From NCBI RefSeq assembly GCF_000010625.1, contig NC_010296.1, positions 390,001 to 422,000 of the forward strand: 32,000 nucleotides of DNA. The letters run 5' to 3'. This document shows, in pieces, positions 18,931 to 32,000 of this stretch (positions within the stretch are counted from its first letter, which is position 1; each line of letters opens with the position of its first letter). The translations under genes were made by a program, and so were the position numbers. Under the pieces are notes generated by a model, which did not search any database, had not been told where the DNA came from, and saw nothing but the letters and a program-made list of their open reading frames with translations. This DNA comes from Microcystis aeruginosa NIES-843 (GTDB lineage Bacteria > Cyanobacteriota > Cyanobacteriia > Cyanobacteriales > Microcystaceae).

Positions 18931-19004
18931 CGGGATTGACGGGGCTCGAACCCGCAACTTCCGCCGTGACAGGGCGGTGCTCTAACCAATTGAACTACAA
19001 TCCC
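18931..19004 (-). tRNA. tRNA-Asp (anticodon GUC)
   Basis: Folded manually as a cloverleaf. Acceptor GGGATTG/CAATCCC, D arm GTTC/GAGC, anticodon stem CCGCC/GGCGG with loop CUGUCAC, T arm GCGGG-TTCGAGC-CCCGT, discriminator G. CCA is not encoded. Confidence 0.92.
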
Positions 19005-27706: not shown

Positions 27707-28987
27707 ATGAATTCAGAAGATTTTAATGTTTTACCCCTTGACAAAATGACAGACTTACCCAATGAATCTGTCGAAGAATTTAGTTTTGACGATCTCTGGA
27801 ACGATCGCCCAGTAGAGAATCCGCTGCCATCGGCAATCGCCCCCGAAGGCGAATTAGTTCCCGCAGCGCAGGCGCAACCCCTGCGGGCAGAAATCGAGGC
27901 TCTAGAACGGCAAAAACAGAGCCTAGCGGCAGAAATATCGGCGTTAAAAGCGGAAAAAGAACGCTTGATCGCCGAGGAACTAGGAGATATCAAAGCTCAA
28001 ATCGAAAGAATGCTCAAGGAAGGCGTAAAAGACCTAGAACAACGCAAACAGGCTTTAGAATTGGCGATCGAACAGTTAGAACGCCGTCGTGAGCGTATTC
28101 GGCAGGAAATGCGGAGTAATTTCGCCGGAGTCTCCCAGGACATAGCCGTGCGGGTTCAGGGATTTAAAGACTATCTGGTGGGCAGTTTACAGGATTTGGC
28201 TGCGGCTGCCGAACAGTTGGAATTACCCCGTTTTGAAACCCCCGAAAAATCCCCCCGCTCCGTGGAACCTCCCCTGCGGACCGAACGGGAGGAAAACCCG
28301 CGCCCATCCCGTGGCAGTCAAGGCCGGGATGATCGCGAAGAAAGTCCCCGTCCTTCCCGCACCAGTAACCAAGGCCGGGATAATTGGCAAGAACCCCGTC
28401 GTTCTAACCGTTCCGGTTATGAATCGGAACCGGTGGGGCAATCCACCCCTAGACAGGGCTTTTCTGACCAAAATCAGCGCATCCAAGCTCTTTTAGACCG
28501 TTATCGCAGTCGTCCTGATTATTACGGTCCCCCTTGGCAACTACGGCGCACTTTTGAACCAATTCACGCCGAACGGGTGCAACAGTGGTTCTTTAAACAG
28601 GGAGGCCGGGGTACTGTTCGCGGTATGGGCAGCCGTCTCCAGAATATTCTGGTCGCTTCGGCAATTATCTCGATTATGGCGGAATTACAGGGCGATCGCT
28701 TCCGTTCTCTAGTTCTGGCTAATAGTCCCGAACGTTTAGGCGAATGGCGGCGCGGCCTCCAAGATTGTCTCGGCATTTCCCGCGCCGATTTTGGACCAGA
28801 CCGCGGCATCGTTCTCTTTGAGTCTCCCGAAGCTTTAATTCAAAAAGCGGAACGTTTAATCGAGGATAAGTATTCACCGCTCATTATCATCGATGATACC
28901 GAAGAACGGCTCAATTTCGCTCTTTTACAATTCCCCTACTGGTTAGCTTTTGCCCCTGAACCCCAACAAAGTTCTAGTTATTGGTAA
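27707..28987 (+). CDS. coiled-coil protein with Arg/Pro-rich internal repeat and conserved C-terminal domain (hypothetical)
   Basis: 426 aa. Heptad-like region AEIEALERQKQSLAAEISALKAEKERL...; repeat EENPRPSRGSQGRDDR / EESPRPSRTSNQGRDN; globular C-terminus. Family name not verified. Confidence 0.6.
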   Translation: MNSEDFNVLPLDKMTDLPNESVEEFSFDDLWNDRPVENPLPSAIAPEGELVPAAQAQPLRAEIEALERQKQSLAAEISALKAEKERLIAEELGDIKAQIERMLKEGVKDLEQRKQALELAIEQLERRRERIRQEMRSNFAGVSQDIAVRVQGFKDYLVGSLQDLAAAAEQLELPRFETPEKSPRSVEPPLRTEREENPRPSRGSQGRDDREESPRPSRTSNQGRDNWQEPRRSNRSGYESEPVGQSTPRQGFSDQNQRIQALLDRYRSRPDYYGPPWQLRRTFEPIHAERVQQWFFKQGGRGTVRGMGSRLQNILVASAIISIMAELQGDRFRSLVLANSPERLGEWRRGLQDCLGISRADFGPDRGIVLFESPEALIQKAERLIEDKYSPLIIIDDTEERLNFALLQFPYWLAFAPEPQQSSSYW

Positions 28988-29087
28988 GTACCTAAGCAAA
29001 ATTAATTACACATCTAAGCCACTACTCCGTCAGACTTCTGGTGTGAGGAAACAGTGAACTGAAAACTCAAATCCGATCCCTAATAGC

Positions 29088-29139
29088 TGTCTCCCGTCTC
29101 CCGTCTCGGAGTCTCCTGTCTCGGAGTCTCCTGTCTCGA
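29088..29139. repeat. short tandem repeats (GTCTCCC / GTCTCGGAGTCTCCT units)
   Basis: tgtctcccgtctcccgtctcggagtctcctgtctcggagtctcctgtctcg. Related, in reverse complement, to the AGGAGAC units at 4236-4406. Confidence 0.85.
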
Positions 29140-29232
29140 CTAGGAAATTAATTTTGCACGACTACTTATTAACTAATTAGGGTCTGCGGCAAAAAGTTTT
29201 TCCTGGGGGCAGGGTGTAGGGTGTAGGGTGTG

Positions 29233-30106
29233 GTGCGATTCGTTGGCTAGAAACTAGACAGTAAGACGTTTAGAGGATTAGCCGCTTGGTAAATGTAGTA
29301 CCTTGATAACTTTATAACCCTACAGGTGCGGGTTAGTAATAACCTTAGTCCTGTCCTCTAGATGCCTAGAGTGACGGCATTTCCTGCTGCTTTAGACTTG
29401 GTACATCTGAGGTAGTGAGCGAGGAAAAAAAAGCGGTATCTGATAGCCTAAATCAGAAACCCGTTGAGCCAGAACCTATGGATAGCCCTGGGGCGAAGAT
29501 ACGAATTAACCATCGTCAACACCCACGAGCCAAAAGGCTGACAGGCTCGAAACAAAAGTTAACAGAGTTGGGGCTGATAGCTCATACCACTATCAGTAAG
29601 GCATTCCCGTTACTCTGTTGTGGACAGTATCATCCTAAGGGTTCAACCAATGGTTATAGGGAACGAAGTAACCCTGATTGACTCTGCCCGTTCGGGGCAG
29701 TAGGAAACCATCCGCAAGTCAATAGAGGGAGAGGATGTCCTTAAAAGCCAAGGCTTTGAGTAATATCAAAGATATGCTGACAAAGGACGGGTAACTAGGA
29801 AGTCTAAGCAACAATCAACGGTCATAAGCTAAACGGCGCTTAACCTGCATGATCCAATAGCTATAACTCTTTTGGAGTCTATATCGGTGATCCGAAGTAA
29901 AAGCCGTTTAGCTTATACGCCCTAAAACCAACAATCTTGTCTGGTGGGGATACAGCCAAGAGGGTTGAATAGACAAGGAAATAATAATTCCCATTATTAT
30001 TCTACTAATGACAGTAGCCTAGTTACTCAGGAGCCGGATACGGCGAAAGTCGTAAGTCCGGTTTTGAAGCAGGGGGTGGGAAGGCGACTTCCTGCTCTAC
30101 TGTAAC
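29233..30106 (+). ncRNA. ORF-less group II intron ribozyme (copy 1, complete)
   Basis: 5' GUGCG at 29233. Domain V at 30031-30064 (GAGCCGGAUACGGC-GAAA-GUCGUAAGUCCGGUUU: AGC triad, 9 bp, AA bulge, 5 bp, GNRA loop). Domain VI at 30070-30102 with bulged A 30099, 7 nt from the ...AC 3' end at 30106. Tetraloop receptor halves UAUGG 29477-29481 and CCUAAG 29634-29639, closed by GAACC/GGUUC. No RT ORF. Confidence 0.8.
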
Positions 30107-30616
30107 GGGTTTTACCGATTTTGAGGTGGTCAATTACCTAATTTTCAGGGAAAAAGTACCTGAATTTTCCCCCCGATCACTCCCATGCCAGGCACTTTTT
30201 GATTTCAAAAAAGCCTAAAGATATTATCCAACAAGGTTTTTAGATTTATTCAGCAAACCCTAAATATTTTACACAATTCATACCAGGTAAGCAAGAGGGC
30301 TACACCACTACTACCGAATCATTACCCGCCCTCTTTGAACAACTTCTGCTGCTCACCATAAGTGAGAGAAAATCACAAATAGGAGATGCACCCGGTTATG
30401 CCTGCTACGAATAAAGAAAAATGGTATTAGTTTTCCTTACGGGGGGGATATAGCTTAAAACGGGTGATTTCTCGGTTATCCAAGCGGTAAACTTTGATTG
30501 AGGATCAATTGGGGACGTAAGCGACGGAGTTTGCGTCTCTTTGTTATAATTCAAAGGCTAGGCTATAATAAATCTTCATAAACACCGATAATTTTAGTCA
30601 AAGATGTAAAAAAAGG

Positions 30617-30802
30617 GGTTCTTCGTTACTTGGTATGGTTCAATAGGGGGGCATAAATCGACTAAATCCTTATCTGGCAAGAGACTTAATTGATTAGTTC
30701 GCTCTAGATCGAAAACAATTGACATAAATCCCCGAATGTCTTTCTATATAAGAGTTTCATTCCTTGTAACCCTGTCCGTTGCATAAGACAAACCGAAGAA
30801 CC
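30617..30802 (-). mobile_element. 186-bp MITE with ISL3-like TIRs (copy 2, inverted relative to copy 1)
   Basis: GGTTCTTCGTTAC...CCGAAGAACC. The 8-bp TSD AAAAAAGG lies at 30609-30616 and 30803-30810. About 85% identical to the reverse complement of 15046-15232. Confidence 0.88.
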
Positions 30803-30854
30803 AAAAAAGGAAGATCATGATTGTGAGAGCGTGTAATTAGTATAATTAAAGTAA

Positions 30855-31052
30855 AAATCATTGGGAGCATCTCACCTTTGCAATGAGCATAAATACTTAG
30901 TGGAAAAATAGGCTTTTCGAGGGTAATTCTTGTTTTAATTCTCCATGTACGCAGTCTTTAAAAGCCTCTATTTCGTTCCAAGACACGATTAAGAGTGGCT
31001 TTTAGGCTAAGTATAATTACTTATCGCGTAAGTGAGATGCTCCCAAATCATT
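30855..31052. repeat. inverted-repeat-bounded segment upstream of the antitoxin gene
   Basis: TGGGAGCATCTCAC (30862-30875) is a perfect inverted repeat of GTGAGATGCTCCCA (31032-31045), with partial extension to about 20 nt. The interior holds only a short minus-strand ORF fragment (...SWNEIEAFKDCVHGELKQELPSKSLFFH*). Confidence 0.35.
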
Positions 31053-31793: not shown

Positions 31794-31843
31794 GTCTGCT
31801 GAAAAAGTTTTTCCTAGGGGCAGGGTGTAGGGTGTGGGGTGTG

Positions 31844-32000
31844 GTGCGATTCGTTGGCTAGAAACTAGACAGTAAGACGTTTAGAGGATTAGCCGCTTGG
31901 TAAATGTAGTACCTTGATAACTTTATAACCCTACAGGTGCGGGTTAGTAATAACCTTAGTCCTGTCCTCTAGATGCCTAGAGTGACGGCATTTCCTGCTG
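31844..32000 (+). ncRNA. ORF-less group II intron, copy 2 (5' 157 nt; runs off the window)
   Basis: 31844-32000 is identical base for base to 29233-29389, and is preceded by the same 50-52 nt leader with 4 differences. Confidence 0.8.

Follow-up and report, generated by a model that had tools for sequence, protein, structure and literature searches.

An IIB-like group II intron that lacks a reverse transcriptase occupies heptanucleotide tandem repeats in Microcystis aeruginosa NIES-843

Results

A group II intron with exact ends downstream of a DUF3086 gene

We analyzed a 32,000-nt stretch of Microcystis aeruginosa NIES-843 DNA (contig NC_010296.1, positions 390,001 to 422,000 of the forward strand; hereafter the window), in which an element at 29233–30106 is a group II intron with exactly these ends. 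Coordinates are window positions on the + strand unless stated otherwise, and L numbers denote the compared loci or contigs. The intron starts 246 nt downstream of a gene (27707–28987) for a 426-aa DUF3086 protein, which is identical in M. viridis NIES-102 (AP019314.1), in M. aeruginosa HE973759.1 and in several metagenome contigs. Immediately before the intron lies an array of three heptamers, GGGTGTA GGGTGTA GGGTGTG (29212–29232), which belongs to a dispersed Microcystis repeat that the intron splits (29170–30262, composed of 29170–29232 and 30107–30262). A second heptamer array (31823–31843) is followed from 31844 by a second intron copy, which is cut by the window end at 32000. We found no terminator-like site between the DUF3086 gene and the intron, so read-through transcription from that gene is possible.

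An earlier note, made by eye from the letters of this DNA, had called the element a group II intron with these same ends and had proposed a check against the Rfam covariance models. We found that the domain V/VI model RF00029 (Intron_gpII) matches 30029–30106 on the + strand with 55 bits, above its gathering score of 40 (E = 2 × 10−8), and that the match stops at 30106, the exact base of the proposed 3′ end. Scanning Rfam with permissive thresholds additionally returned two matches below their gathering scores, the D1–D4 model RF01999 at 29379–29446 in domain I (26.7 bits) and the plastid ndhA/ndhB domain V model (41.7 bits). Both ends fit the group II consensus (5′ GUGYG, 3′ AY), with GUGCG at 29233–29237 and UAAC ending at 30106, and 73 metagenome loci share the conserved first 22 nt. 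The domain V pattern occurs once in the window and in none of 100 shuffles.

Sites lacking the intron fix the same ends. The DNA of M. viridis NIES-102 (L123) matches 28901–29233 and 30107–30862 at 100% with the two blocks abutting, which gives an inserted length of exactly 874 nt with a 1-nt ambiguity at a G. The identical empty junction is present in L124, L125, L127, L129 and L130, while the site is occupied in L126; the intron is an insertion that is polymorphic among Microcystis strains. As the intron ends coincide with the empty-site junction, the coordinates 29233 and 30106 are proven independently at the sequence level.

Further copies were located by exact look-up of a spurious 88-aa open reading frame (ORF) within the intron (29415–29681), which returned seven further contigs with differing neighbor genes. 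The intron copies on these contigs are 99.7–100% identical (six of the seven at 100%) and represent at least five other loci. BLAST recovered a complete intron on each contig, identical to nt 1–594 and 682–874 of the window copy and without the intervening stretch. The canonical element is thus 785 nt long (784 nt in a subfamily of 98.5% identity), and the 874 nt found here are these 785 nt plus an 89-nt nested insertion. Metagenomes hold additional Microcystis copies in (GGGTGTR)n arrays. The second copy in the window (31844–32000), which the earlier note overlooked together with the heptamer target, is identical to nt 1–157 of the first, lies ~1.7 kb downstream of it, and occupies a site that is empty in L123 at ~13074. 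On the M. viridis NIES-102 chromosome, two tandem copies 21 nt apart occupy one heptamer array (L145:4730–7838). The orientation of the intron relative to neighboring genes is inconsistent across copies.

As the earlier note had said, the intron holds no reverse transcriptase (RT) or maturase frame: its longest ORFs, the 88-aa frame and one of 53 aa (29944–30105), are spurious, and neither encodes an RT. A tblastn search with a related intron-encoded protein (IEP) found only a weak 28-aa C-terminal IEP remnant overlapping domain V (E = 0.002). The note's expectation that ORF-based annotation would leave this stretch blank did not hold, as gene callers place spurious proteins there; in public Microcystis genomes these are labeled hypothetical or conserved hypothetical (P0007 in NIES-102, P0128 in PCC 9443, and P0006/P0129 in a metagenome-assembled genome).

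A miniature transposable element is nested in domain IV

The nested insertion is a miniature inverted-repeat transposable element (MITE) of 87 nt at 29827–29913, with no strand assigned. It is short and non-coding, has terminal inverted repeats of 12–13 bp (AGCTAAACGGCG/CGCCGTTTAGCT), is flanked by a duplicated TA (29825–29826 and 29914–29915) and is multi-copy, with copies of 98.9% identity at L124:12263–12350 and L158:6097–6184 in Microcystis DNA. The MITE is missing from every other intron copy compared, and removing 29827–29915 yields the canonical 785-nt sequence exactly. Of the earlier description of a structurally intact intron with a short domain IV, the first part stands for the catalytic core, which the MITE leaves untouched along with the exon-binding sites (EBS) and the branch site; domain IV, on the other hand, carries this foreign insert without counterpart in the other copies, and measures 240 nt here against 151 nt in canonical copies.

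Insertions were also seen elsewhere in the family. The upstream copy in L145 is broken after nt 171 by a different MITE of ~87 nt (ends AGCTTAGACGCA.../...TGCGTCTAAGCT, TA duplication) and also by an insertion sequence (IS) with a DDE_Tnp_1 transposase. Large insertions also interrupt the copies beginning at L147:12471 and L158:3296, one after nt 140 (with a 400-aa ORF) and the other by ~1.1 kb after nt 115.

Most of the six domains show compensatory changes

We assigned the six group II domains by minimum free energy (MFE) folding combined with covariation. The MFE domain folds used a 786-nt MITE-free version with one extra A in domain IV, which leaves the domain assignments unaffected. Domain I spans 29233–29670 (MFE, the weak RF01999 match, and covariation for the arm at 29472–29644), followed by domain II at 29672–29729 and domain III at 29737–29788 (both MFE and RNAalifold with compensatory pairs), domain IV at 29789–30028 (MFE and the ORF list, which shows no RT), domain V at 30031–30064 (RF00029 alignment and compensatory changes in relatives L176 and L162) and domain VI at 30069–30103 (MFE, RF00029 and compensatory changes in relatives).

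Several details that had been picked out by eye were borne out. Domain V, which lies inside the RF00029 match, can be read directly: an AGC triad and a 9-bp lower helix with some G-U pairs lead over an AA bulge to a 5-bp upper helix capped by a GAAA loop. Domain VI folds with a GCGA loop and a single bulged adenosine, A30099, at the branch-point position 7 nt from the 3′ end. In domain I, the 5′ half of an 11-nt tetraloop receptor (helix GAACC at 29472–29476 and UAUGG at 29477–29481) and its 3′ half (CCUAAG at 29634–29639 and helix GGUUC at 29640–29644) are also read directly. The receptor forms an asymmetric internal loop between two helices that covary in 54 family members, with the GAACC/GGUUC helix changing from C-G to U-A; the family consensus at the loop is CAU/UAAA, a variant of the canonical motif. 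Given its position, we regard this loop as a candidate zeta receptor for the domain V loop. The two Microcystis subfamilies differ mainly in the region of the receptor 3′ half, equivalent to 29615–29640: in the 98.5% subfamily (L164/L140/L142) CCUAAGG is replaced by CAAAUACGG and the canonical 11-nt receptor is lost, while the adjacent segment retains the state of distant relatives.

We quantified covariation for the domain I arm from a covariance model built on a 4-sequence alignment, in which RNAalifold found compensatory changes in 14 of 42 pairs. A sequence-only MAFFT alignment of 47 domain I sequences (1060 columns) was too gappy for covariation, and the covariance-model alignment was used in its place. 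The model found 54 full-length matches among the compared loci, and in these 54 sequences 93.2% of cells form standard pairs, compared with 68.6% in column shuffles and 28–42% when partners are slid; 39 of the 42 pairs have changed on both sides. RNAalifold also found compensatory changes in 11 of 34 pairs in domains II and III, and domains V and VI show such changes in 9 of 29 pairs. For the 5′ part of domain I (IA–IC) covariation is anecdotal, and the domain IV fold is by MFE alone. Two truncated or degenerate relatives, L002 (a Nostoc plasmid) and L181, were left out of the structure work.

The architecture of the domain I arm and the position of EBS2 fit class IIB, the IEP of the relative L001 comes nearest to the IIB1 TeI4h RT, and domain V bears a resemblance, below the gathering score, to that of plastid ndhA/ndhB. 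We describe the intron as IIB-like, probably of the chloroplast-like/cyanobacterial type.

Both exon-binding sites read one heptamer repeat

We next consider how the intron relates to the repeats that flank it. The 5′ exon array contains two intron-binding sites (IBS), IBS2 GGGTGT (29219–29224) and IBS1 GGTGTG (29227–29232). EBS1, CAUACC at 29583–29588, lies in the terminal loop (29581–29589) of the distal hairpin of domain I and complements GGUGUG at exon positions −6 to −1. EBS2, ACACCC at 29519–29524, lies in a junction that is single-stranded in the consensus structure and complements GGGUGU at −14 to −9. The two sites are thereby complementary to two successive repeat units, and both complementarities, CAUACC/GGUGUG and ACACCC/GGGUGU, are present at every copy. 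On the 3′ side the exon starts with GGG (30107–30109), in which G30107 is a candidate IBS3.

We compared the flanks of the available copies. GGGTGTRGGGTGT(G/A) precedes the intron at each of the 23 5′ junctions examined, and GGG follows all 14 complete copies; the outer flanks differ, with 16 distinct 5′ contexts and nine distinct 3′ contexts. The constant junctions and variable outer flanks indicate that the intron inserts where two units of a tandem (GGGTGTR)n heptamer array meet. The window contains two such arrays, both occupied by an intron. Across ~160 kb of Microcystis DNA, a sample biased toward intron-bearing contigs, we counted 34 arrays, in which 16 target positions were occupied and 50 were free; in L123 and L124, whose selection had nothing to do with introns, 42 kb contain five arrays with 11 free positions.

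The dispersed repeat around the insertion measures ~220 nt and surrounds both arrays of the window. It matches L123 13016–13235 and L124 17170–17399 at 86–92%, and its context recurs at several other insertion sites. In NIES-102 (L123) a DDE_5/DDE_Tnp_1 transposase gene begins directly downstream of the repeat, which may thus represent the end of an IS or something derived from one. Other short tandem repeats were noted nearby and elsewhere: 29084–29139, just upstream of the intron, contains CTCCCGT twice followed by CTCGGAGTCTCCTGT-type units, and heptamer arrays of CTGATCA, GGCTGTG, GGAATTA and ATAACTG occur in intron flanks at other loci, Microcystis intergenic DNA being rich in such arrays.

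Relatives in other heptamer arrays show matching exon-binding sites

In a BLAST search against plasmids, only the first ~90 nt of the intron, from nt 1, match RT-encoding introns on Nostocales plasmids, with no close homolog. Scanning metagenomes with the conserved 5′ 22-mer returned the 73 loci mentioned above, which fall into three groups: Microcystis copies in (GGGTGTR)n arrays, RT-encoding relatives with ORFs of 580–650 aa at unique gene-like targets, and ORF-less or fragmentary relatives in heptamer arrays of different sequence. The IEP of the relative L001, which combines RT, maturase and HNH domains, gives a full-length alignment to the TeI4h RT from a Thermosynechococcus elongatus IIB intron (PDB 6ME0, E = 1.8 × 10−108).

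Members of the third group follow their own repeats. L176 (67% identity over full length; RF00029, 51.7 bits) lies after ...AGTAATG; L150, with two copies, L163 and L207 lie after (GAGTAAT)n; L166 (70% identity, domain V disrupted) lies after (GGGAATA)n; and L181 is a 26-nt fragment after (GGTAATA)n. In the metagenome contigs L150 and L163, which come from another organism, a conserved palindrome, TAGACTTCTTRCAGAAGTG, stands before the (GAGTAAT)n arrays; this suggests that there, too, the arrays are part of a dispersed repeat.

The exon-binding sites of these elements vary with their targets. The window intron has EBS1 loop CAUACC and EBS2 ACACCC for (GGGTGTR)n, L176 has CAUUAC and AUUAC for (GAGTAAT)n, and L166 has UGUUCC and AUUCC for (GGGAATA)n, so that each element's EBS1 and EBS2 are complementary to its own heptamer. 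More broadly, in most of the 54 family members the loop homologous to EBS1 complements the last 5–7 exon bases and the junction homologous to EBS2 complements about −9 to −13, the same geometry as in the window intron.

From these comparisons we propose, with confidence about evenly divided for and against, a lineage of ORF-less IIB introns specialized on cyanobacterial heptanucleotide tandem repeats resembling the short tandemly repeated repetitive (STRR) sequences. Such a lineage would have EBS1 and EBS2 both tuned to one 7-nt unit and retuned per host (GGGTGTR, GAGTAAT, GGGAATA and possibly GGTAATA), and would persist without an RT of its own by using that of another intron, either distantly related or unrelated. 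Were this so, the arrays would offer a renewable, multi-copy and harmless landing pad, on which the lineage could persist and spread.

A probable recent insertion by retrohoming

We consider it very likely that the element is a recently inserted copy of a 785-nt ORF-less IIB-type intron family resident in Microcystis, which retrohomes into (GGGTGTR)n with an RT acting in trans. According to this proposal, the intron RNA would fold into the six standard domains, and EBS1 CAUACC and EBS2 ACACCC would pair with GGUGUG and GGGUGU in successive units of the array. The excised intron would then reverse-splice at the unit boundary ...GGGTGTR|GGG..., and the DNA would be copied by an RT supplied by another intron. 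As the target repeat is scattered in intergenic DNA, many homing sites would be available and genes would stay undisrupted. The copy at 29233 would have inserted recently downstream of the DUF3086 gene, after which the MITE would have landed in the insertion-tolerant domain IV. Splicing is predicted to give the ligated-exon junction ...GGGTGTAGGGTGTG^GGGTTTTACCG and a lariat in which G29233 is joined 2′-5′ to A30099.

The case for an RT in trans follows from the copies. The presence of identical copies at many loci and the polymorphism among strains mean that DNA must have been copied, and for an intron without its own RT this points to an RT in trans, probably that of another intron. Trans mobilization of ORF-less introns has precedent in the TeI3 introns of T. 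elongatus, which use "driver" IEPs (PMC2882425). Seven group II RTs have been reported from M. aeruginosa NIES-843 (PMC8934634), and these are the obvious helper candidates.

Several observations weigh against the proposal, most of them concerning the helper. A protein search with the L001 IEP gave 8000 matches, and the best 120 of the 8000 all came from other cyanobacteria, none labeled Microcystis. We found no RT within the ~160 kb of Microcystis sequence compared, and a search with the 53-aa domain IV/V frame returned only the spurious ORFs of other copies and no database protein sharing the C-terminal remnant. Microcystis repeats were sought in the RT-bearing metagenome loci for host assignment and none were found; none of these loci looks Microcystis-like. 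In the intron itself, no EBS3 was located, and G30107 is a candidate IBS3; the 98.5% subfamily (L164) and L166 depart from the canonical 11-nt receptor in its 3′ half, for which reason the zeta assignment above goes by position. Lastly, in this copy the MITE could interfere with the binding of an IEP to domain IV. Two other scans were uninformative about relatives: viral contigs gave no matches with either the 5′ 22-mer or the IEP, and the domain V pattern GAGCCGGATN5GAAAN5AAGTCCGGTT matched at least 120 loci from many phyla among genome contigs, with no full-length relative among the matches listed. The domain V lower helix is evidently too widely conserved to single out relatives.

We weighed these points against four other accounts of the locus. 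That the element is no intron and its group II-like motifs arose by chance draws on nothing beyond the general caution that by-eye searches turn up short motifs; the covariance-model match above the gathering score, the precise empty site and the covariation in 54 homologs refute this account, whose probability we put at next to nothing. The intron might instead have spread passively, inside the larger MITE- or IS-end-like dispersed repeat or by homologous recombination between heptamer arrays. Several sites do share a larger context, ...AAAAAGTTTTTCCTGGGGGCA(GGGTGTR)nGGGGTTTTACCGATTTTGAGG..., and the repeat in L123 stands just upstream of a DDE transposase gene. However, at two L123 sites the larger repeat occurs without the intron and with a precise empty junction, and other copies (L133, L135, L137–L139 and L145) occupy simple heptamer arrays whose flanks are unrelated. 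The phase of insertion in the repeat is constant and agrees with EBS1 and EBS2, and diverged relatives in other heptamers show matching EBS changes, which would not be expected under passive spread. We accordingly rejected the intron as a passenger of a larger repeat and hold passive spread to be very improbable.

The remaining two accounts concern activity. The earlier note had left a choice between dependence on a trans-acting protein and a self-splicing relic, of which trans dependence is favored by the identical copies without an RT of their own, while the 100% identity between copies at different loci makes it unlikely that the family is a relic. For the individual copy at 29233, inactivation by the MITE or by want of a helper, leaving inert intergenic DNA, is a real though distinctly less likely prospect than continued activity. 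The foreign 87-nt insert sits in domain IV, the IEP-binding domain of studied introns; MITEs and IS elements are visibly breaking up other copies (L145 copy A, L147 and L158); the intron lies in non-coding DNA with no selection for splicing; and our searches found no helper RT. Yet outside the MITE this copy matches those at other loci with 100% identity, so that any inactivation would be very recent. Domain IV naturally accommodates insertions of ~1.8 kb in the form of an ORF, the inverted repeats of the MITE would form a self-contained hairpin, and nothing in the catalytic domains, the EBS or the branch site has been disturbed, all of which is consistent with a MITE-bearing copy that may still be active. 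We find it improbable that the intron is a protein-independent self-splicing ribozyme like C.te.I1 of Clostridium tetani, with splicing as its sole activity. The catalytic core is complete, the canonical tetraloop receptor is present and no cognate IEP emerged from our searches, all of which such a ribozyme would accommodate; but the identical copies at multiple loci and the strain polymorphism require DNA copying and hence an RT, on which ground we rejected it. In addition, the exons are non-coding, leaving a splicing-only role without obvious benefit, and group II RTs have been reported from Microcystis genomes (PMC8934634).

One further RNA gene in the window, a tRNA gene at 18931–19004 on the − strand (RF00005, 67 bits), is unrelated to the intron.

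Discussion

Our analysis places a polymorphic group II intron at the boundary of a heptamer repeat unit in Microcystis, with consequences for annotation and for our view of genome dynamics in this genus. Public Microcystis genomes mislabel pieces of the intron as hypothetical proteins. Strain polymorphism, tandem copies and nested MITEs and IS elements document very recent mobilome activity in bloom-forming Microcystis. Cyanobacterial heptamer repeats, whose function has been unexplained, act as intron landing sites for which the EBS appear to have been retuned across hosts, a natural example of a group II intron changing its specificity while sparing the host. The locus also raises the question of which RT mobilizes an intron family without an evident cognate IEP.

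By class, the element is ordinary: ORF-less group II introns with a borrowed RT are already documented in cyanobacteria, and a standard Rfam scan flags it. Its specialization on a heptamer target is interesting and possibly undescribed. Our literature search turned up no description of a group II lineage homing into heptanucleotide tandem repeats with EBS1 and EBS2 both tuned to the unit, which is weak evidence, as most subscription-journal papers fall outside its coverage.

The closest known system is that of TeI3 in T. elongatus, a IIB1 intron that is ORF-less and driven by the IEPs of TeI4 (Mohr, Ghanem & Lambowitz 2010, PMC2882425), in a genome with 17 ORF-less introns (PMC2882425). Like the Microcystis element, TeI3 is a cyanobacterial IIB-type ribozyme from which the domain IV ORF has been deleted, and some of its copies are IS-interrupted or nested; moreover, the TeI4h RT is a full-length homolog of the IEP found in the RT-encoding relatives of the Microcystis intron. 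The two differ in that our searches found no related IEP-encoding intron in Microcystis, whereas ORF-less introns are nearly always accompanied by such relatives (PMC4424553). They differ also in their targets, since the Microcystis intron occupies a short tandem repeat whose heptamer unit is read by EBS1 as well as by EBS2, and in that the ORF-less state and heptamer targeting are apparently common to diverged relatives in other hosts. The ORF-less introns of Arthrospira platensis NIES-39 are another parallel, having likewise proliferated in a cyanobacterial genome and being detectable with RF00029; 79 of its about 150 group II introns are ORF-less, in a report that gives no target-site analysis (PMC2853384).

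Homing to sites that spare the host is also known from other group II introns. Class C (IIC) introns insert after terminator stem-loops or at attC sites (PMC4424553), and resemble the Microcystis intron in choosing a repeated, non-coding motif that is harmless to the host. They belong to another RNA class, however, and recognize DNA structure with a very short EBS1 and no EBS2, whereas the Microcystis intron pairs through 6 + 6 nt. The nested introns of Methanosarcina acetivorans (PMC4424553) share with it self-renewing, non-coding homing sites and tandem or nested copies, as in L145. These are archaeal introns whose target is intron sequence; in Microcystis, by contrast, the target is a tandem repeat of the host.

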